This document shows positions 172 to 42,746 of a stretch of DNA of 54,639 nt, one piece after another. Position 1 is the stretch's first letter; each line of letters begins with the position of its first letter. The position numbers and the translations under genes are program-made. The notes under the pieces were generated by a model. The model saw nothing but the letters and a program-made list of their open reading frames with translations. It was not told the DNA's origin and did no database searches. The DNA is from Nanobdellota archaeon (lineage in GTDB: Archaea > Nanobdellota > Nanobdellia > Woesearchaeales > DATGWN01). The stretch lies in NCBI GenBank assembly GCA_051819685.1, contig JBNJGI010000004.1:1-54639 (forward strand), read 5' to 3'.

Positions 172-957
172 TTAATTCTTATAAATATTATATGTTGTTT
201 TATTATATGCTTTTACAGATTCATTTCTCAATACTGTTTTTGTAATACTTCCAACCTTTCTATGACAAGTAGGACATAAAACAATTAGATTATTCACCCT
301 ATTATTTGAAGGATTACCATCAATGTGATGTATATCTGAAGCATCCTTTTCACCACAATGTTGACATGCATTATTTGCTCGTGCATATATTTTTTGTTTT
401 ATGGAACTCTTAATTGGTATTCTTTTTTTATTATTTAATCTGACATATCCATCTTCTGTTTCTTTTACTTTTATTATTTTTGGCTTAGGCGGATTCCATT
501 TATCATTTTCGTCCCATTTTTTGAAAACACCCTCTTTCGCATCGTGCCATTCATCATTAATCCCATATCCGCATCTTTTACAATAAAAAAATCTTTGTAC
601 AAATCTAGCAGGCCATAATTTGTAATCTGTTTTTTTATCTACTATTTCTCCATCTTTGTTTTTGTATATTTCTGAAGTGTAATTTCTTTTAATTTTTTTT
701 ATCCCTAAATCTTTTTCTTTTGAATCATCTTCTTTTTTAACAAAAGATCTTTTACATTTAGGACATCTAGTTATATAGATAAAATAAGTTATTGAAGCAA
801 AAATTCCTAAAAATATAATTGAATAAATATAATAGTTAAAAGGATATTTTTGAATTATAAAAAATAAAGAAAGTATTAAACTTAAACCCGACAAAATAAA
901 ACCATAATATAACATGTCTTTGTAAAGAGGTAATGGTTCAATATTTTTGTCTCCCAT
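172..957 (-). CDS. Membrane-anchored protein with Zn-ribbon and C-terminal HNH endonuclease domain
   Basis: Two N-terminal TM segments, CPKC...CKRC, C-terminal CQHC...IHHIDGNPSNN...NLIVLCPTCH. Confidence 0.75.
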   Translation of the reverse strand: MGDKNIEPLPLYKDMLYYGFILSGLSLILSLFFIIQKYPFNYYIYSIIFLGIFASITYFIYITRCPKCKRSFVKKEDDSKEKDLGIKKIKRNYTSEIYKNKDGEIVDKKTDYKLWPARFVQRFFYCKRCGYGINDEWHDAKEGVFKKWDENDKWNPPKPKIIKVKETEDGYVRLNNKKRIPIKSSIKQKIYARANNACQHCGEKDASDIHHIDGNPSNNRVNNLIVLCPTCHRKVGSITKTVLRNESVKAYNKTTYNIYKN

Positions 958-1044
958 ATCTATAATTTTGAAAAGATATATTTAAAGGTTTCTAAAAAAT
1001 TAAAAAATGCAAAAATATATAAAGTTTTAAATAAAAAATTTTTT

Positions 1045-2202
1045 ATGAAACAATTTATAACATTACTTTTTACTTTATTACTTTTAGTAGGGTGTACAAC
1101 AGAGGCAATTGATAATAGTCAAGAAAAATCTTCGAAAATAACTAAGATTAATAAAAAAAAAGATTATGAAAAAAAAGATGAAATTGAGTTAAAGGATGAG
1201 AAAAAAAAAGAGATTAAATCGGTGAAAAAAGAAAATTTATATCAAAAAGTTCTTTATCCTGAAGATTTTGAAATAGATATTTATCCTGCAGGTCAAGGTA
1301 TGTCCATAGGAAATATAATTAGTGTAGATTCTTTGATAAATTCAGTTGTTTACAAATACAATTTCACTGATAGTTATGTTGTATATTATGCAAGTAAATG
1401 GAATAATAAGGTTGATGATTATGACATGAGATTTGAACAGTATATTTACAAATTTTCTAATACAAATTTATCTAAAAAGGCTTATAATAATTTACAATTA
1501 TCATTGTTCACTGGAACATATGATGAAGATGAAGAAAATCCTTCCTATTTATTAGGATCTAAGGAATCTGAAAGAATAAATATTAAAAGAAGATTTCAAA
1601 AAGAAAATAAAGAATGGAATTATCTTAAATTAGATGGTAAATATATTATATTTGTAGAAAGCATATACCCTACAAGTTCTCTAGGAAATTCATATGAAGA
1701 AGAACTTAAGGAATCTATTATTGATAGATTTAACAATCCTTTATTACTTTCAAACAACCCAGGGAATGAATTTAAAAAAGAAATGATAGATAAAAAATTA
1801 TATATAAATGAAAATGAACATTTCAAGATTTGGTTAAATGATATCAAAGCAGAAAAAGTAGATAATACTTCAGGACTACTAACTTTTTTGCAATTTACAG
1901 TAAAAGGAAAAAATAATTATCCTTTTTATCCCTCATACAGTTACTTTGTAAGAGAAACAAACACTAGTTCTAATACAAAGCAATCAGGAATTTATGCAAA
2001 ATGGGTACTATATTCAGGATATATTTTAGATACAAACGCTCAAGAAACAATAACTTTTGCAGAACCTACTTCTATTAATTTTAATAAAAACGGCACTGCA
2101 GAATTCAAAATAATAGTTGCAGACAGATCTAGAGGTATTCAAGCACCTTATGAATTAGCAGAATTAAAATATAATGTTGATTTGAAAGAACATTTTGAAT
2201 AA
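1045..2202 (+). CDS. Hypothetical lipoprotein
   Basis: 385-aa ORF; signal peptide ending in lipobox LLLVGC. Confidence 0.65.
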   Translation: MKQFITLLFTLLLLVGCTTEAIDNSQEKSSKITKINKKKDYEKKDEIELKDEKKKEIKSVKKENLYQKVLYPEDFEIDIYPAGQGMSIGNIISVDSLINSVVYKYNFTDSYVVYYASKWNNKVDDYDMRFEQYIYKFSNTNLSKKAYNNLQLSLFTGTYDEDEENPSYLLGSKESERINIKRRFQKENKEWNYLKLDGKYIIFVESIYPTSSLGNSYEEELKESIIDRFNNPLLLSNNPGNEFKKEMIDKKLYINENEHFKIWLNDIKAEKVDNTSGLLTFLQFTVKGKNNYPFYPSYSYFVRETNTSSNTKQSGIYAKWVLYSGYILDTNAQETITFAEPTSINFNKNGTAEFKIIVADRSRGIQAPYELAELKYNVDLKEHFE

Positions 2203-35138: not shown

Positions 35139-35468
35139 TTAATTGTTGTTAAATAATTTTTTAAAAATAAAATTTATGTTTTCTTTGGTTTTATTATCTT
35201 TTATAAAACCAATTTTTTTGTAAATTAAACTATTGTGAAGTGTGAAAATCATATCAATGTATATGTAGCTATTAAATTTTATATTACCTGAACATTTGTT
35301 TTTTTCAAGACATACTTCATAATTTTTTATATTTCTTTTTTTAGTTGTAATTTGGCATAAAATTATATTGTCTCCTCCAGGGACTGAAACAACTAAAGCA
35401 GGTCTAAGTTTTGATTTTGTCATATCAGAAAAAGGGAAATCAACTAAAACTATATCAAAACATTTCAT
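35139..35468 (-). CDS. mazF: PemK/MazF family toxin
   Basis: FDIVLVDFPFSD...KLRPALVVS...ILCQITT. Confidence 0.9.
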   Translation of the reverse strand: MKCFDIVLVDFPFSDMTKSKLRPALVVSVPGGDNIILCQITTKKRNIKNYEVCLEKNKCSGNIKFNSYIYIDMIFTLHNSLIYKKIGFIKDNKTKENINFIFKKLFNNN

Positions 35469-35692
35469 TTTTGTAAATAAGAGAAAGCCTCCTCATCTTC
35501 TTTTGAATTCCAACAATCAGCAAGAGAGTTTTCAGATAAGATCGCAGTTTCATTTTTTTCTTTAATTGGTTTAATTACTATTTCATCTTTTTTTGTAATT
35601 ATATAAGCACTCTCGCCTTCTTTAATAATATCAAAGGATTTAGGTATTGTTATTTGTCTTTTTTTTGAAACTTTTATCGTTCTTATTGACAT
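35465..35692 (-). CDS. AbrB/MazE-like antitoxin
   Basis: KVSKKRQITIPK swapped-hairpin N-terminus, acidic C-terminus; ATGA overlap with toxin. Confidence 0.85.
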   Translation of the reverse strand: MSIRTIKVSKKRQITIPKSFDIIKEGESAYIITKKDEIVIKPIKEKNETAILSENSLADCWNSKEDEEAFSYLQK

Positions 35693-36058: not shown

Positions 36059-36454
36059 TTAGCTATCTAGATATTCAATTAGTTTTTTCTGTAGGATTGG
36101 TGGTTTTATTTTTATTGAATCAAGATTTTTTATATCTACCCATCTTAATTCTCTATGATTTTTTTCAGTGTCTTTATCTATTATTTCAGAAGAAGGTATT
36201 ATTTTTCCTTCGTAATCATCTGCTAAGAAATAAGTGCAATCAGATATATTATCTTTAATTCTCCATAATTTTTCTTTTATTTTGACTTTTATCGATGCCT
36301 CTTCTTGCATTTCTCTTTCTGCTGATTCTTTAGCATTTTCACCTTCTTCAATTCCACCCCCTGGAACGACATAAAACTTATCCTGATCTTTTATGCGATA
36401 TATCAGCAATACTTTTTTGTTATTCTTCAGAATCACTGCAGTTCTTTTTTTCAT
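36059..36454 (-). CDS. NUDIX hydrolase
   Basis: Nudix box GGGIEEGENAKESAEREMQEEASI. Confidence 0.92.
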   Translation of the reverse strand: MKKRTAVILKNNKKVLLIYRIKDQDKFYVVPGGGIEEGENAKESAEREMQEEASIKVKIKEKLWRIKDNISDCTYFLADDYEGKIIPSSEIIDKDTEKNHRELRWVDIKNLDSIKIKPPILQKKLIEYLDS

Positions 36455-36483: not shown

Positions 36484-37461
36484 TTATAAAAAATCTTCGG
36501 GAAAAAAATTCAGTTTCAGCTCTTCTGTTATGGTGGCTAACTCTGTATTTTTAACTACTTCGGGAAATCTATTTTTTATTTCTGAAATATGCTCATAAAT
36601 ACGAGTCATATTTTCTTCTTCTATTTCTACTTCAAGTTCCCACCCACCTAGCAATTTAATAAAATGTATTGTGGAAGGATTTTGTTTCAAAAAACCAACT
36701 AAGGAATTAAAATTTTCCTTTCCGTAGTCTTTTAAAGAGATACATATCTTGTGTAATTGCATCCCCAACTTTTCAGTATCTATAAATGTTGTATATCCTT
36801 GTATGATGCCTTTCTTTTTCAAATTCTTAATTCTTGAATGGATTGTTCTTGCATCAAGATTTATTCGTTCAGATATATTATGATATTCAAATCTTCCATC
36901 GTTCTTAATCAAAGACATGATTTTCTTGTCTGTCTCATCAATCTTTTTTATTTCTTTTATCCCAGTAAATAAAAACTCCTTTCTCGTATCTCTTTTTTTA
37001 TCAAATAGATAATCTCTTTCAAGGGTAACTGCTCCTTCGATCTGAGTAATATCATAATTCTCTATGAATTTTCCCCACTTAGATAGAATTTTGTTCTTTT
37101 TTTCAGCAAAATGAAGAATGTCTTTTGTATAAAAACCAAGCATCAAATCCCATCTTCCAATAGACCTCGCAACCCATGCCACTTTAGGATCTTCAACAAG
37201 ATTTTTTATCATTTTTTTTTCATTGTCTTTTGAAAGTCCTTGTAAATTAAGATATATCTTACTGGAAAAAATACCTAATTTAGCTAAATCGAAAACAGGA
37301 ACATATTTAGTGATTATTTTTTTTTCTTGTAGCTGGTTGACATAATATGCAACAGTGTCTTTCTTTGATTGTATTTTTCTAGCCATTTCCTTATAACTCT
37401 GCCTAGCATCTTTAGTTAATTCATACAAAATCTTTTTTTCAATGGTTTTTAATTTTGCCAT
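36484..37461 (-). CDS. Tandem (double) Lrp/AsnC family regulator
   Basis: Two HTH+RAM units (KILYELTKDARQSY...; DKKIMSLIKNDGR...); start moved to ATG at 37461. Confidence 0.88.
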   Translation of the reverse strand: MAKLKTIEKKILYELTKDARQSYKEMARKIQSKKDTVAYYVNQLQEKKIITKYVPVFDLAKLGIFSSKIYLNLQGLSKDNEKKMIKNLVEDPKVAWVARSIGRWDLMLGFYTKDILHFAEKKNKILSKWGKFIENYDITQIEGAVTLERDYLFDKKRDTRKEFLFTGIKEIKKIDETDKKIMSLIKNDGRFEYHNISERINLDARTIHSRIKNLKKKGIIQGYTTFIDTEKLGMQLHKICISLKDYGKENFNSLVGFLKQNPSTIHFIKLLGGWELEVEIEEENMTRIYEHISEIKNRFPEVVKNTELATITEELKLNFFPEDFL

Positions 37462-37597
37462 ATTATACAAAAATACATTTTATTATATAAATTTTACCGT
37501 TTTGTTTAATTTTAATCTAATAAAATTTAAATGTTTTTTCAAATAACACTAGATTATATCATTTCCTCATAAAAAAAAGGAAATGGGAGTGTAAAAA

Positions 37598-37684
37598 ATG
37601 GAAGATAAAAATAGTAAGGAAGTAGAAAAAGAAAAGACAAATGAGAAAATATCCACTGGAGCAATTTGTTATGAGGTAGATTGA
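37598..37684 (+). CDS. 28-aa peptide MEDKNSKEVEKEKTNEKISTGAICYEVD, candidate RiPP precursor or leader peptide
   Basis: Manual translation; RBS-like gggagtg upstream; ends 44 nt before the radical SAM ATG; below ORF-track size cutoff. Confidence 0.6.
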   Translation: MEDKNSKEVEKEKTNEKISTGAICYEVD

Positions 37685-37728
37685 AAAGACATTCTTTTAG
37701 GATTTTTCAAATAAATAGAAATGATATT

Positions 37729-38829
37729 ATGGACTCTAAATTTTATGTAGAAACTTTTGGATGTGATTCCAACAAAGCAGATTCTAACAAAGTTATAACC
37801 TGGATAAAAAGGAATGGCGGGAGAATTGTAGATAATTACAACAAAGCAGACTATATAATTCTTATGAGTTGTTCTTTTAATAAGATTATGAAGGGTAAGA
37901 ATGTGGAAAGGCTTAAAGAATTCAAAAACAATAAACGAGCCAGAATCATATTAGGCGGGTGTATGTCTAAGATCTTTCCTGAAACAAAAAAATATGCTCA
38001 TCAGTATTTTGGACCCAGAGAAATTAACAAGATTGAATCTCTCTTCAATCACTCAAAGAAATCAATAGATAATATATCTCCGGAATTTCAAAGAAAAAAT
38101 AAGAAAGTGATAAGGATCAGTACTGGTTGTAAAGGTAAATGTTCGTACTGTGCTATTAAAAAAGCGAATGGCCCTGTTATGAGTAGAAGTATAAAGGACA
38201 TAAAAGAAGATATAAAAAATGGAATTAAAGTGGGTTTTAAAGAATTTCTATTAACCAGTGAAGATGTAGGTTCTTGGGGTCAGGATATAGGAAAAAACCT
38301 TAATGGTTTAATAGAAGAATTGGTCAAAATACCTGAAAAAATTAAGATAAGATTAAGTACTGTCCATCCCAAATGGTTTATCGAAAATCCTGAACTGGTG
38401 AGTGTGTTCAATAACCCCAAAGTAGAGAATTTTGTTTATCTTGCGATTCAATCAGGATCAGATAGGATCTTGGAGTTGATGAGAAGAGAATATACCTCAC
38501 AACAATACATTAATATTGTAAAAAAATTAAAAAAGAAAATCCCCTCTATAAAGATACATTGTGATTTATTAGTGGGTTTTCCTAGTGAAACAGAAGACGA
38601 TTTCTTAAAAAGTAAGCAGATTATTGAAACCCTTGATTTTCATTTCCTTCAAGTATTTGCATATACCGATATGGAAAACACAGTAGCAAGAAATATTAAA
38701 CCAAAAGTGGATTTCAATATTATCAAGAAGAGATGCAACATTCTTATGAAAACGTTCTTGGAAAAAAATCAAGAAAAAGATAGATTGTTAATAAACACCA
38801 ACTTGGATAAGAAAGATATTGGTGTTTAA
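37729..38829 (+). CDS. MiaB/RimO-like radical SAM methylthiotransferase-family enzyme lacking the TRAM domain
   Basis: UPF0004 domain with 3 Cys (TFGC, MSCS, GGCM), CKGKCSYC, IQSGSDRILELMRR, VGFPSETEDDF; start moved to ATG at 37729. Confidence 0.88.
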   Translation: MDSKFYVETFGCDSNKADSNKVITWIKRNGGRIVDNYNKADYIILMSCSFNKIMKGKNVERLKEFKNNKRARIILGGCMSKIFPETKKYAHQYFGPREINKIESLFNHSKKSIDNISPEFQRKNKKVIRISTGCKGKCSYCAIKKANGPVMSRSIKDIKEDIKNGIKVGFKEFLLTSEDVGSWGQDIGKNLNGLIEELVKIPEKIKIRLSTVHPKWFIENPELVSVFNNPKVENFVYLAIQSGSDRILELMRREYTSQQYINIVKKLKKKIPSIKIHCDLLVGFPSETEDDFLKSKQIIETLDFHFLQVFAYTDMENTVARNIKPKVDFNIIKKRCNILMKTFLEKNQEKDRLLINTNLDKKDIGV

Positions 38830-39016: not shown

Positions 39017-39664
39017 ATGTCAGAAAAAATTAAGTGTTATGGACAAAGTTGTACTGAAATAACTATGAATGGTAAAGTATTAGTGATAGATCCTTCTTAT
39101 AAGACTAAAAAAGCCGATATTATTATGCTTACAGGAAGTGTTTTTAAACCTGAAATAATTGATAAGATTTCAAAAAAAGATACTAAAATTATTGCTCCCA
39201 GGTGGTTGGAAGAGGAAGAAGAATATCTAAAGGTTAAAGATGTGATTAAGCTTATGCATAATGAAGAGACTAAGATTGATGATGTCGATATAAAAACAAT
39301 TCCCGCTTATGATATAAATAATGTTTTTGAAAGTTCTATGAAAAAACTTCTCGGATTTCTTATTAAAGGGGAGAAGGAGATATATTATTCAGGTAATACT
39401 AATCTTGTTCCTGAGATGAATGTTATTAATGTAGATTATGCTTTTATTCCTGTGGATAGCGATTATGTTGATATTTTTGAAGCTCTTGCTATCGCTAATA
39501 TAATAAAGGCCGAAACTTTTGTTCCTATTTCTTATGATAAAGATGAGAATTCAGGTCTTACGAGTTGTGTTAAATTTTCTTTGAAATGTTCTTGCAAAGT
39601 TGAGCTTTTCAGGAATAAATCAGATCTTCCTGATGTTAAGCTTCTTGTAGAAGATGAGGTTTGA
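39017..39664 (+). CDS. MBL-fold protein with degenerate metal site
   Basis: YGQSC..I, VIDP, KADIIMLT, IPAY, GFLI, YYSGNT, FVPISY; HxHxDH absent. Confidence 0.75.
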   Translation: MSEKIKCYGQSCTEITMNGKVLVIDPSYKTKKADIIMLTGSVFKPEIIDKISKKDTKIIAPRWLEEEEEYLKVKDVIKLMHNEETKIDDVDIKTIPAYDINNVFESSMKKLLGFLIKGEKEIYYSGNTNLVPEMNVINVDYAFIPVDSDYVDIFEALAIANIIKAETFVPISYDKDENSGLTSCVKFSLKCSCKVELFRNKSDLPDVKLLVEDEV

Positions 39665-39839: not shown

Positions 39840-40367
39840 TCAAGTTGTATTACCAGTGAAAATTTCATCACACCATGAAGGAGGTATTATTTCATAATTA
39901 GCTGTTGTGTTTTGTAATATATCATTAAAAACATCTTTGTTGCCATACTTATCTGTAACTATAAGTTTATGTGCTGAATTATCTATTTGTCCTGTAAAAA
40001 CAATCCTCATTATTTCACCAGGATTATAATATTTTTCATCGACTATATTAGAGTCTGAAGTTATATTCATAGAGAAATTTTCGCATCTGCTTATTTTATC
40101 TCCATCAAGATATATATTGAGGTGTTCAGGATTTATTTTGATATCTCCTGTGTTTTTTACATAAGCTAAAATCTTATTATTGGCATCATTATAAGCGAAG
40201 GATTCTATTTTAAGTCTGCTTTTCATTTTTGATGCATAAAAATCACTTCTTTCATCCATTGCTACAGAGCTTGTGTTGATAGAATGTATAAATATATTTA
40301 TTGTTACCAAAGAAACAAGGAGTGTAGCAACGAAGAATATTGTTTTTGCTGCTATACCGGAAGCCAT
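39840..40367 (-). CDS. flaG: Archaellum accessory protein, FlaG/FlaF family
   Basis: N-terminal TM MASGIAAKTIFFVATLLVS, YVKNTG...IYLDG...PGE. Confidence 0.75.
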   Translation of the reverse strand: MASGIAAKTIFFVATLLVSLVTINIFIHSINTSSVAMDERSDFYASKMKSRLKIESFAYNDANNKILAYVKNTGDIKINPEHLNIYLDGDKISRCENFSMNITSDSNIVDEKYYNPGEIMRIVFTGQIDNSAHKLIVTDKYGNKDVFNDILQNTTANYEIIPPSWCDEIFTGNTT

Positions 40368-40380
40368 TTTTTAATGAAGA

Positions 40381-41310
40381 TCATTCTTTATCGATCTTTT
40401 TCTTGTTATCTTCTTTCTGTTTATCCATTTCTTTTTCAAAGAAATTTCCTTTTTTATCATCAGATGTTTTCTTTTTTGATTTTACTTCATCATTTCCTTT
40501 TATCATTCCTTTTTGATCATCTTCTTCTTTTTCAAGAAAAGGATTATACATTTTACTTACAACTTCATAAAGACCGATAAATTTTTCTATATTTGATTGG
40601 ATTTTTTCTATTTGTTTTTTTATTTCTTCAATTTGATTTTTATTTTCATCATTCTCATTCCTTAATGTTGTCAATTCTTTTTCGAATTTTTCCTGTTTTT
40701 CCTTCACTTCACTGCTTATTTTCGATGATGAATCAACTAATTCTTTTACTTCATCCATTATAAGGCCCATCATAGCCTCTCCTGATTTAGTTTTAGTTAC
40801 ATCCTGCTCTTGTTGCTTTGCAGGTTGTTCTTTTTCTATATTCTCTTGCACGGGCTTTTCTTTTTCAACAGATTTTTTATTTTTATCATTGACATTTTCA
40901 TCTTTTTTTGCAATATCGGGTTCTTTTGTACCTTTTTCGGTCTTTTTATTCTGAACCTCTTCTTTTTTTTCAGGTTCTTTTTTTACCTGTTTATCATCTG
41001 CCTTTTTTTCTACATTTTTAGAAGATACTTCTACAATAAAATCAAGATATTTTTCAATGAGAGAAGAATCCACTTTTTTTGTGTCTTTCAATAATTCACT
41101 TAAATAAACTTTCGCCTGTTTAAGATATTCTTTTACATTATCTCCTGAAGTGCTGGCACTTAATGGTAATTTTTTTAGTTCATCTATCAGTAATGGATTT
41201 GGAGACTTTATATTTTTGGTTATCTTTCCAACTATCATTTCGGCTTTTTTGCTTATATATTCAGGATTTCCTGAATATTCTTCCTTCTTTTTTAGATTGC
41301 CGATTTTCAT
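40381..41310 (-). CDS. Archaellum accessory protein with a FlaC-like coiled-coil domain
   Basis: Coiled coil ending in IEKFIGLYEVVSKMYNPF; adjacent to the flaG-like gene. Confidence 0.7.
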   Translation of the reverse strand: MKIGNLKKKEEYSGNPEYISKKAEMIVGKITKNIKSPNPLLIDELKKLPLSASTSGDNVKEYLKQAKVYLSELLKDTKKVDSSLIEKYLDFIVEVSSKNVEKKADDKQVKKEPEKKEEVQNKKTEKGTKEPDIAKKDENVNDKNKKSVEKEKPVQENIEKEQPAKQQEQDVTKTKSGEAMMGLIMDEVKELVDSSSKISSEVKEKQEKFEKELTTLRNENDENKNQIEEIKKQIEKIQSNIEKFIGLYEVVSKMYNPFLEKEEDDQKGMIKGNDEVKSKKKTSDDKKGNFFEKEMDKQKEDNKKKIDKE

Positions 41311-41354: not shown

Positions 41355-42746
41355 TTATTTAAAGTTAGGCATTCCCATACCTTTCATACCACCCATCCTT
41401 TTCATCATCTTTTGCATATTTTTAGAGTTACCCCCATTATTTTTCATCATTTTCATCATTTTTTTGCTTTGTTTGTAATATTTAAGTAAATCCCTTACTT
41501 CTTGTACATCTCTTCCAGATCCTTCAGCAATTCTTTCTATTCTTGATATATTTATTATATCAGGTTTTTCCATTTCTTCTTTTGTACAACTATCCATTAT
41601 AAATTTCCATGTTTTTATCTTGCCTTCCTGTTGTTTCAATGTGTCTTTCGGGACATTCATACCACTCATACCAGGAATCATTTCCATGACTTTGGTTAAA
41701 GGACCCATTTTTTTCATAGCTTGCATCTGCTCGTATAAGTCATTAAGTGTAAAATTTCCTTTTAGCATCCTTTTACTCATATCTTCTGCATCTTCTTCTT
41801 GTATTGCTCCTTTAGCTTTTTCAAGAAGTGCTTCCAGATCACCCATTCCTAAAAGACGTCCCACAAAATTTTTTGGTTTGAATTCTTCAATATCATCTAT
41901 TTTTTCTCCGGTTCCTATGAACTTGACTTTAGCAGAAGTTGTTGCACATGCACTCAATGCCCCTCCACCTTTTGCAGTTCCGTCCATTTTAGTTATTATG
42001 ACTCCTGTAACACCACAAAGATTATGGAAAGATTTAGCTTGCTTTTCAGCCGTCTGACCTATATCTCCACCAATAACAAGAAGTTTTTCATCAGCATCCA
42101 CTGTTTTATCGATTTCACCGAGCTCTTTTATCAGATCTTCACTTAATGCATCCCTTCCCGCTGTATCTATTATAAGGATGTCATATTTTTTGAATTCTTT
42201 TTCATATTTATTGTATATTTCTTTAGGATATTCCAGATCACCTTTTCTGTTTTCGTCAATTTTTTCTCCATAAAAATCAATTCCTGCTTTTTCACAATTT
42301 TGTTTTAATTGTTCATATGCAGCTGGACGCCAAGTATCTGTCTGTATTGCAGCAACTTTGAATCCTCTTTTAGAATAATATTTTCCTAATTTTGCTGCTG
42401 TTGTTGTCTTACCATTACCGAAAAGCCCAGTAAGCATTATTTTGAAAGGTTTTTTCGGTTTTATTTCAATTGTTTCAGATTCACCGCCTAAAAATTGGGT
42501 TAATTCTTCATATACTATATTTATGACTTGCTCTTTTTTCGTTATTCCTGCTGGTGGATCTTGTTTGGCTTTCTCTTTGATATTTTTAGTAAGATCAAAA
42601 ACAAGCTTTACATTTACATCACTTTGTAGAAGGGATCTTTGTATTTCTTTTGTTATTTCTTTTAAGAGGGAGTCATTTACAAATATATTTCCGGTTAACT
42701 TTTTTAAAGTTCCCCTTAATGATTCACCTAGTTTATCGAGTACCAT
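41355..42746 (-). CDS. srp54: Signal recognition particle protein SRP54
   Basis: GLFGNGKTTT, DTWRPAA, DTAGR, TKMDGTAKGGGALS, Met-rich M domain. Confidence 0.97.
   Translation of the reverse strand: MVLDKLGESLRGTLKKLTGNIFVNDSLLKEITKEIQRSLLQSDVNVKLVFDLTKNIKEKAKQDPPAGITKKEQVINIVYEELTQFLGGESETIEIKPKKPFKIMLTGLFGNGKTTTAAKLGKYYSKRGFKVAAIQTDTWRPAAYEQLKQNCEKAGIDFYGEKIDENRKGDLEYPKEIYNKYEKEFKKYDILIIDTAGRDALSEDLIKELGEIDKTVDADEKLLVIGGDIGQTAEKQAKSFHNLCGVTGVIITKMDGTAKGGGALSACATTSAKVKFIGTGEKIDDIEEFKPKNFVGRLLGMGDLEALLEKAKGAIQEEDAEDMSKRMLKGNFTLNDLYEQMQAMKKMGPLTKVMEMIPGMSGMNVPKDTLKQQEGKIKTWKFIMDSCTKEEMEKPDIINISRIERIAEGSGRDVQEVRDLLKYYKQSKKMMKMMKNNGGNSKNMQKMMKRMGGMKGMGMPNFK

Follow-up and report, generated by a model that had tools for sequence, protein, structure and literature searches.

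A candidate peptide-modification module built on a TRAM-less methylthiotransferase-type radical SAM enzyme in DPANN archaea

The stretch of DNA analysed here, a 54,639-nucleotide (nt) contig (JBNJGI010000004.1) of a Nanobdellota archaeon that we call the window, is AT-rich (~28% GC) and belongs to a 930-kb genome that is 87% complete. Between positions 36484 and 38829, it holds three genes. On the reverse strand lies a gene for a tandem (double) Lrp/AsnC-type protein of 325 amino acids (aa) (36484–37461, read from the ATG at 37461). Divergent from it, on the forward strand, are a short open reading frame (ORF) for a 28-aa peptide (37598–37684, stop included), the proposed precursor, with the sequence MEDKNSKEVEKEKTNEKISTGAICYEVD followed by TGA, and, 44 nt downstream, a gene for a 366-aa methylthiotransferase-type radical S-adenosylmethionine (SAM) enzyme that has no TRAM domain (37729–38829, stop included). 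An initial annotation, made from the letters alone, had described this arrangement and suggested that the enzyme modifies the peptide, as in pathways for peptides synthesized ribosomally and modified post-translationally (RiPPs). The gene arrangement was borne out, including the ribosome-binding-like site of the peptide ORF (GGGAG, 37585–37589, forward strand, 8 nt before the ATG) and the two HTH_AsnC/HTH_24 domains of the divergent gene.

The domain content of the enzyme was read from Pfam, NCBIfam, an alignment of homologues and an AlphaFold model. Pfam finds UPF0004 (PF00919; residues 4–85, 64 bits) and Radical_SAM (PF04055; residues 129–294, 81 bits), and its matches include no TRAM domain (neither PF01938 nor PF18693) and no SPASM or PqqD family. 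The NCBIfam family profile TIGR00089 is matched at 285.2 bits, against a cut-off of 251, over positions 1–374 of 429, so that the TRAM part is missing; other members of the clade described below are borderline against the same cut-off (250–269 bits). All equivalog models score below their cut-offs, with e-MtaB at 244.6 bits (cut-off 314.7), MtaB at 221.4, RimO at 212.8 (cut-off 356.95) and MiaB at 199.0. The three cysteines of the auxiliary cluster in UPF0004 (C12, C48 and C78) and the three of the CxxxCxxC motif (C134, C138 and C141) are invariant in an alignment of 32 clade sequences, and the C-terminus is a short conserved strand (LxNTN) right after the radical SAM core. In Foldseek, the model, with a predicted local distance difference test (pLDDT) score of 93.9, matches MiaB (7mjz, query-normalized TM-score (TMq) 0.85), an MtaB model and RimO (4jc0, TMq 0.81–0.82, 28% identity). 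These alignments span 357–379 columns of targets that are 421–451 residues long, leaving a TRAM-sized part of each target without a counterpart. Domain matches, family profile and model thus agree on an enzyme with an intact three-cysteine UPF0004 domain and CxxxCxxC motif, and no TRAM. A TTG at 37681, which would give an ORF of 37681–38829, is an unlikely start, since the alignment of homologues begins at the ATG of 37729.

About 30 TRAM-less proteins, the enzyme among them, form a distinct clade apart from e-MtaB, MtaB, MiaB and RimO. A protein search returned 611 matches at E ≤ 0.001, the best 120 of which were examined. The best 31 full-length relatives (P0002–P0031 and P0033) are 39–56% identical to the enzyme and 351–378 aa long, two being annotated at 414 aa, and none of the 31 has a precomputed TRAM match. 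In a careful tree of 50 rows, which includes 16 from the clade and leaves out a further 16 clade rows, 7 e-MtaB rows and the long-branched P0093, a branch with 100/95 support has the TRAM-less clade as one of its sides; e-MtaB has its own branch (91/95), and MtaB, MiaB and RimO are each separate (100). The enzyme thus falls outside the tRNA-modifying clades within which, the initial annotation had cautioned, it might nest. The root of this tree was not inferred, so the clade could be sister to e-MtaB, and nesting inside e-MtaB is not supported. A quick tree of 74 rows separates the clade, together with a looser TRAM-free set, from e-MtaB, MtaB, MiaB and RimO with 100% SH-aLRT support; four loci with odd or truncated ORFs (L014, L021, L022 and L028) were left out of it, and three others (L010, L016 and L029) yielded no ORF.

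The looser set that groups with the clade in the trees (P0034–P0046 and P0062) comprises proteins of 370–435 aa from archaea and bacteria, without a Pfam TRAM domain; in two of them, P0034 and P0036, the family profile is matched only to about position 355 of 429. Absence of TRAM extends further still. The initial annotation had held that all MiaB, MtaB and RimO relatives carry this domain, which does not stand: P0043, a 346-aa protein from a Nanoarchaeota record, scores 400 bits on the e-MtaB model and covers only profile positions 1–351 of 421, so TRAM can also be missing or split off within true e-MtaB. A more distant TRAM-less relative, 381 aa long and 37% identical, lies on a metagenome contig (L034, 5–3643) in a bacterial conjugative context, its neighbours being a coupling protein of type IV secretion (TrwB/TraG families) and an ORF that resembles lytic transglycosylases. 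Among viral contigs, 65 relatives were found, all at most 31% identical, and no clade member.

Within the order of the window, the clade is sparsely distributed. Of 201 genomes sampled, a methylthiotransferase match occurs in 167, and almost all of these matches are open frames of 420–440 aa with ~30% identity; matches of 48–50% identity occur, besides the window's own genome, only in G073, G165 and G130. On the e-MtaB model TIGR01578 (cut-off 314.7), clade members score 198–245 bits, and five further relatives (L113, L114, L033, L118 and L034) score 198–231, as against 360–458 bits, with a full TRAM, for seven canonical copies from the same order. Four of these seven are second copies in G073, G165 and G130: all three other carriers have a full-length e-MtaB alongside the TRAM-less enzyme, which is therefore not a replacement of e-MtaB. 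Four genomes (G121, G183, G112 and G132) enter the genome tallies and, through L010 and L021, the background scans below, and have no part in the clade, the peptides or the trees. One locus of the clade, L117, is on a contig labelled as a Methanosarcinales archaeon, yet its genome, G130, is placed in the window's order; this is probably a bin labelling issue.

This distribution bears on a reading in which the enzyme is a tRNA ms2t6A methylthiotransferase served by a TRAM domain in trans, with the short ORF incidental. Its best equivalog score is to e-MtaB, it is the sole UPF0004 gene found in the window's 87%-complete genome, and that genome encodes a 107-aa TRAM protein that stands alone and has an acidic tail (G000:C3:52324-52488; L002 1474–1797). 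We nevertheless regard this reading as improbable. The enzyme clade is separate from e-MtaB, and the three other carriers have a canonical e-MtaB as well. Both genomes of the window's own family, which are 100% and 94% complete, have no methylthiotransferase match at all, which suggests that e-MtaB is absent from the whole family. A stand-alone TRAM ORF occurs not only in G073, G165 and G130 but also in G180, a genome of the same family without a methylthiotransferase match, so it is not tied to the enzyme, and we rejected it as a specific trans partner. Finally, a tRNA function would leave unexplained both the Lrp linkage and the peptide linkage to which we now turn.

Seven loci of the clade have upstream DNA: the window, L113 (=L004), L114, L115 (=L005), L116, L118 and L033. 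All-against-all BLASTP of their ORFs of at least 70 aa gives two families common to the loci, the enzyme and the divergent tandem Lrp protein, and no third gene of that size conserved with the module. The Lrp orthologue is present, in divergent orientation and at 42–55% identity, in all seven, as the initial annotation had anticipated. In tblastn against 194 loci, the Lrp protein matches these clade loci only and none of about 180 other methylthiotransferase loci, whose flanks are of varying extent. A protein search with the Lrp sequence yields 43 close homologues that are 45–62% identical. Nine Lrp homologues and enzyme homologues agree in the size of the longest contig, seven of the nine lying beyond the loci read here, which is indirect evidence that these nine enzyme–Lrp pairs each share a contig.

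Short ORFs on the same strand as the enzyme gene, encoding 18–43 aa and lying −17 to +92 nt from it, are found in all six independent lineages. The window peptide, which starts one codon past an in-frame stop, consists of a Lys/Glu-rich N-terminal part and a C-terminal core, KISTGAICYEVD, ending in ...EKISTGAICYEVD. The L114 peptide is 38 aa long, 50 nt upstream of the enzyme gene, and ends in ...GKVSSGSICYDF; that of L113 is 18 aa long, 4 nt upstream, and ends in ...EQVSVGTIICTME; that of L118 is 41 aa long, overlaps the enzyme start and ends in ...NKAICFLNGLDATLL. Two further peptides contain the core unit more than once. The 43-aa L033 peptide, 92 nt upstream, has three units (...AITTGAV...VTIGAV...KTGSVCVNYN), and the 39-aa L116 peptide, 3 nt downstream of the enzyme gene, has two (...SVISGSIYFFPEQE...SVSSGAVCCFPE). 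The shared core is [IV]-S-x-G-[AS]-[IV]-C followed by 2–4 residues, often with an acidic last residue: four of the six peptides end in Asp or Glu, and Asp is penultimate in a fifth. A strict form of the motif is present in five of the six lineages (the window, L113, L114, L033 and L116), and L118 has a looser version with KAICF instead, so the conserved C-terminal core proposed by the initial annotation is found in five lineages strictly and in all six loosely. The peptide ORFs of L033, L116 and L113 have similar GGAGG or GGTG sites before them, unlike those of L114 and L118, and three of the peptide ORFs are already annotated as hypothetical genes (P0124–P0126).

Several observations bear on this core. 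First, the motif counted, [ST]xG[AST][IV]{1,2}C, matches once in 1,081,406 six-frame residues of non-clade loci and nowhere in the rest of the window, and no ORF of the 930-kb genome other than the window peptide has the strict motif. As the motif was derived post hoc from the same loci in which it was counted, the contrast matters more than any probability. Second, codons differ between loci for the same residue (Ser as TCC, TCT or AGT; Gly as GGA, GGC or GGG; Cys as TGT or TGC). Third, the N-terminal parts of the peptides are variable, and the core unit is what is repeated 2–3 times in L033 and L116; repeats there that have no Cys retain the [IV]-[ST]-x-G-[AS]-[IV] unit. Fourth, among the L116 peptide and its close variants (P0121–P0123), all five variable positions lie outside both core units. 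This pattern fits a variable leader with a conserved core, although the six lineages define neither a cleavage site nor a leader motif. Pfam and NCBIfam searches with five of the peptides at E ≤ 10 returned nothing except a 12.9-bit transposase match. Two long repetitive proteins matched by the peptide profile (P0203 and P0204) were taken as spurious, and an upstream frame at L034, KKVTGSDFDLCYEFITM, was dropped as probable chance, having no ATG, GTG or TTG start and no Lrp gene, and conjugation genes as neighbours.

Might the short ORF instead be an upstream ORF with a regulatory role, or might the conserved stretch act as non-coding RNA or as a DNA element in the divergent promoter region, with no part played by a peptide? 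In five lineages it does occupy the enzyme gene's 5′ region, and the intergenic region does contain conserved, promoter-like DNA. In L116, however, the ORF lies downstream of the enzyme gene; this speaks against a leader upstream ORF and makes the link between peptide and enzyme independent of upstream position. The conserved DNA lies beside the Lrp start, outside the ORF, and conservation within the ORF is at the amino acid level with differing codons. An Rfam search of the peptide leader region gave no match at E ≤ 1, and RNA folding of that region is not unusual relative to shuffled sequences (z = +0.43). A regulatory element is accordingly the least probable of the explanations that we weighed, and a very unlikely one. 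A 9-bp hairpin can form in the RNA at 37559–37588 (CAUUUCCUC...GGAAAUGGG), overlapping the peptide ORF's ribosome-binding-like site.

The tandem Lrp protein was characterized by Pfam, an AlphaFold model and Foldseek. Pfam detects HTH_24 and HTH_AsnC-type domains, each over two stretches, and the RAM model weakly (E 0.0049). The structural model (pLDDT 93.1) is one chain with two halves, each consisting of a helix-turn-helix and a RAM-like beta-alpha-beta-beta-alpha-beta fold. The best Lrp-family matches in Foldseek are single archaeal proteins, such as PH1519 (27% identity), each covering about half of the chain; PH1519 and LrpA align over that half at target-normalized TM-scores (TMt) of 0.8–0.85. 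Over the whole chain, only fused NirDL (4ch7) matches, at TMq 0.65 and 13% identity, and the NCBIfam AhbA model scores 40.9 bits against a cut-off of 140. An alternative TTG start at 37470 would lengthen the protein by 3 aa. Tandem Lrp proteins of about 320 aa with 25–35% identity (P0171–P0202) form a wider family in these archaea, and in L116 a second tandem Lrp paralogue (379–1368, forward strand; 329 aa, ~30% identical) stands back-to-back with the Lrp gene of the module.

Upstream of the Lrp gene, we read from the sequence a predicted promoter at 37483–37512 (reverse strand) that comprises a TATA-like box, an element resembling the B recognition element (BRE) and a further conserved stretch. 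The TATA-like box (37483–37491 in forward-strand coordinates) is centred 26 nt from the Lrp ATG. The same arrangement, TTTATA[AT]A at 22–27 nt before the Lrp ATG, preceded by C[CG]G[CT]AA[AT]A and TT[AC]AAC, recurs in the window, L113, L114, L115/L116 and L118. In assigning these elements, we assume general archaeal promoter geometry. The conserved intergenic DNA thus looks like a BRE/TATA-like promoter beside the Lrp start and not like an obvious operator. The tandem Lrp protein is presumed to be the dedicated regulator of the module.

Taken together, we put at about 0.5 the probability that the peptide is the substrate of the enzyme in a minimal RiPP-like module with a dedicated Lrp regulator. 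The three genes would then make up one conserved, self-contained module of some DPANN archaea (those labelled Woesearchaeota or Nanoarchaeota). The short ORF would be translated, its variable, charged N-terminal part serving as a leader and its C-terminal core, with the 2–4 residues that follow, as the substrate of the adjacent enzyme. That enzyme would be a paralogue of the tRNA methylthiotransferases that kept both [4Fe-4S] sites and lost the RNA-binding TRAM domain, in which case a C–S bond is most likely formed on the peptide and not on tRNA. Two reactions are suggested by the chemistry of the family: a methylthio group could be placed on a C–H near the Cys, as RimO does (+46 Da), or an intramolecular thioether could form (−2 Da), with the thiolate of the peptide Cys, instead of methyl sulfide, bound at the auxiliary cluster's open iron. 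As its dedicated transcription factor, the module would have the divergent tandem Lrp protein. The product would probably be a modified peptide unlike those described so far. It is possible, although we hold this more tentatively, that the module represents the first ribosomal-peptide pathway on a methylthiotransferase scaffold and the first in DPANN archaea, with the strictly co-inherited Lrp protein going beyond promoter-bound regulation as a partner that either recognizes the peptide, like a RiPP recognition element (RRE), or senses the product, like an autoinducer receptor.

Binding of the peptide by the enzyme was modelled, as the initial annotation had suggested, by co-folding the L114 enzyme (alignment of 32 sequences) with the L114 peptide (alignment of 9), two [4Fe-4S] clusters and SAM. 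The median score is 0.57 (runs of 0.57, 0.53 and 0.62), compared with 0.02 for the best of three controls; at least 74% of contacts agree between runs, and the pLDDT of the partner is at least 49. In a calibration, in which alignments and riding ligands differ from those used here, 58 of 80 solved complexes reached the mark, as did 2 of 110 mismatched pairs; those doing so with scores of at most 0.60 were only 7 of the 80 and both passing mismatches. The co-fold thus weakly supports enzyme–peptide binding. Overall, the proposal of the initial annotation is partly supported: its comparative predictions held, and none of its refuting checks that were run went against it.

The same co-fold could equally depict a small partner subunit of the TRAM-less enzyme, which might provide the auxiliary cluster with a Cys ligand or a sulfur relay or serve as an adaptor, the real substrate then being another protein, an RNA or a small molecule; the co-fold speaks to possible binding and not to turnover. 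We give this explanation a minor share of the probability, larger than that of the tRNA and regulatory-element explanations. In the last core unit, no residue is as constant as the Cys; neither a protease nor an exporter is kept alongside the module; and an integrative model titled as MtaB with the small protein YvfG (9a6d) is a possible precedent. The widely varying length (18–43 aa), N-terminus and repeat number of the peptides are, however, unlike a structural subunit; the Cys-free repeats of L033 and L116 still keep [IV]-[ST]-x-G-[AS]-[IV]; and no other candidate substrate gene is conserved nearby. We favour a substrate over a subunit because of the variable length and leader, the core repeats in two lineages, the loss of TRAM and the coexisting e-MtaB.

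Other observations weigh against the peptide being the substrate of a RiPP-like pathway. In the enzyme, the Lrp protein and the neighbours scanned, Pfam finds neither an RRE/PqqD-like domain nor a peptidase or exporter. Many RiPP clusters have such features, though not all, and their absence would be unusual for a secreted RiPP. The co-fold score falls in the weak zone of the calibration, and a peptide bound as a subunit would look alike. The peptide is readable in six independent lineages only, about 25 further homologue loci being outside the comparison; the contig of L115, which is nearly a copy of L116, stops just past the enzyme gene; and L117 and L119, whose 5′ part is missing, show no ORF downstream, none of these three loci being counted. 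Searches with the peptide profile gave no new lineage, returning only the profile members and three L116-type near-copies. Translation of the ORF and modification of the peptide are both inferred, and a look for sequencing runs covering 36484–38829 returned none.

The module is flanked by genes for a NUDIX hydrolase (36059–36454, reverse strand) and a metallo-beta-lactamase-fold hydrolase (39017–39664, forward strand), neither of which is kept beside the module in the other loci read. About 800 nt from the module is a type II toxin–antitoxin pair (35139–35692, reverse strand), consisting of a PemK/MazF-like toxin of 109 aa (PF02452, 47 bits) and a MazE-like antitoxin of 75 aa (PF04014, 22.4 bits, just below the cut-off), the gene of which overlaps the toxin gene. 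Further downstream (39840–41310 and 41355–42746, both reverse strand) are an archaeal flagellin/pilin-like protein (PF01917), then a 309-aa protein that is rich in Lys and Glu and matches FlaC_arch, and SRP54. GC content is 25–32% throughout the 30–45 kb region, with no sign of recent import by base composition, and the loci closest to the window are labelled as Woesearchaeota or Nanoarchaeota metagenome-assembled genomes.

Were the peptide the substrate, a fifth, TRAM-less clade would extend methylthiotransferase chemistry to dedicated small peptides and would offer a new enzyme scaffold for ribosomal peptide natural products. Genome-reduced DPANN archaea would then be investing in peptide modification, possibly for a signal, a cofactor or a weapon in a host-dependent life. 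A literature search, with most subscription journals outside its reach, found no description of a methylthiotransferase-type or peptide-dedicated RiPP enzyme of this sort, and one on YvfG plus MtaB found nothing.

Several known systems resemble parts of the module. The siroheme decarboxylases NirDL and AhbAB function together with radical SAM enzymes in making heme d1 and in the alternative synthesis of heme, and NirDL is the only solved single-chain tandem Lrp fold and the top match of the Lrp model; its 13% identity compares, however, with 27% between each Lrp half and archaeal Lrp/FFRP regulators. In the pathways to pyrroloquinoline quinone (PqqA/PqqE) and mycofactocin (MftA/MftC), the product is used inside the cell, so no exporter is needed. 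Like the module described here, these pair a very short precursor and its C-terminal core with one adjacent radical SAM enzyme, but they rely on SPASM enzymes, a separate RRE protein (PqqD or MftB) and tailoring genes, none of which is conserved here.

Sactipeptide and ranthipeptide synthases carry SPASM or twitch auxiliary clusters and usually an RRE. They too are radical SAM enzymes encoded beside a short, Cys-bearing precursor, and a further point of comparison is the repeated core motif of L033 and L116. One of them, PapB, links Cys to Asp, according to a published account (PMC10739248). The window enzyme differs in that its auxiliary cluster is of the N-terminal UPF0004 type and its chain ends after the radical SAM core.

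The closest counterparts are the methylthiotransferases themselves, which a 2023 study divides into four clades, with archaea generally carrying one member, e-MtaB (PMC10702137). The MtaB–YvfG model (9a6d), known to us by its entry title and the second-ranked structural match, pairs a methylthiotransferase with a small protein as here; MtaB, however, retains TRAM (target of 451 residues). The tRNA t6A37 methylthiotransferases of the e-MtaB/CDKAL1 type (TIGR01578; MJ0867) share with the window enzyme an archaeal setting and the two-cluster core and are its best equivalog (244.6 bits); the window enzyme falls below their cut-off of 314.7, has no TRAM and sits in a separate clade, and the e-MtaB loci scanned have neither the peptide ORF nor the tandem Lrp gene. 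RimO, the uS12 Asp beta-methylthiotransferase (TIGR01125; 4JC0), is described in that study as the only methylthiotransferase known to have a non-tRNA substrate, a polypeptide (PMC10702137). RimO carries TRAM, comes from bacteria and acts on a ribosomal protein instead of a dedicated small peptide, and the window enzyme scores below the RimO cut-off (212.8 versus 356.95) and outside the RimO clade. Nonetheless, the two share the MiaB/RimO fold with UPF0004 and radical SAM clusters, their 28% identity is the highest among solved structures, and the Asp on which RimO acts has a parallel in the Asp or Glu that ends four of the six peptides described here.

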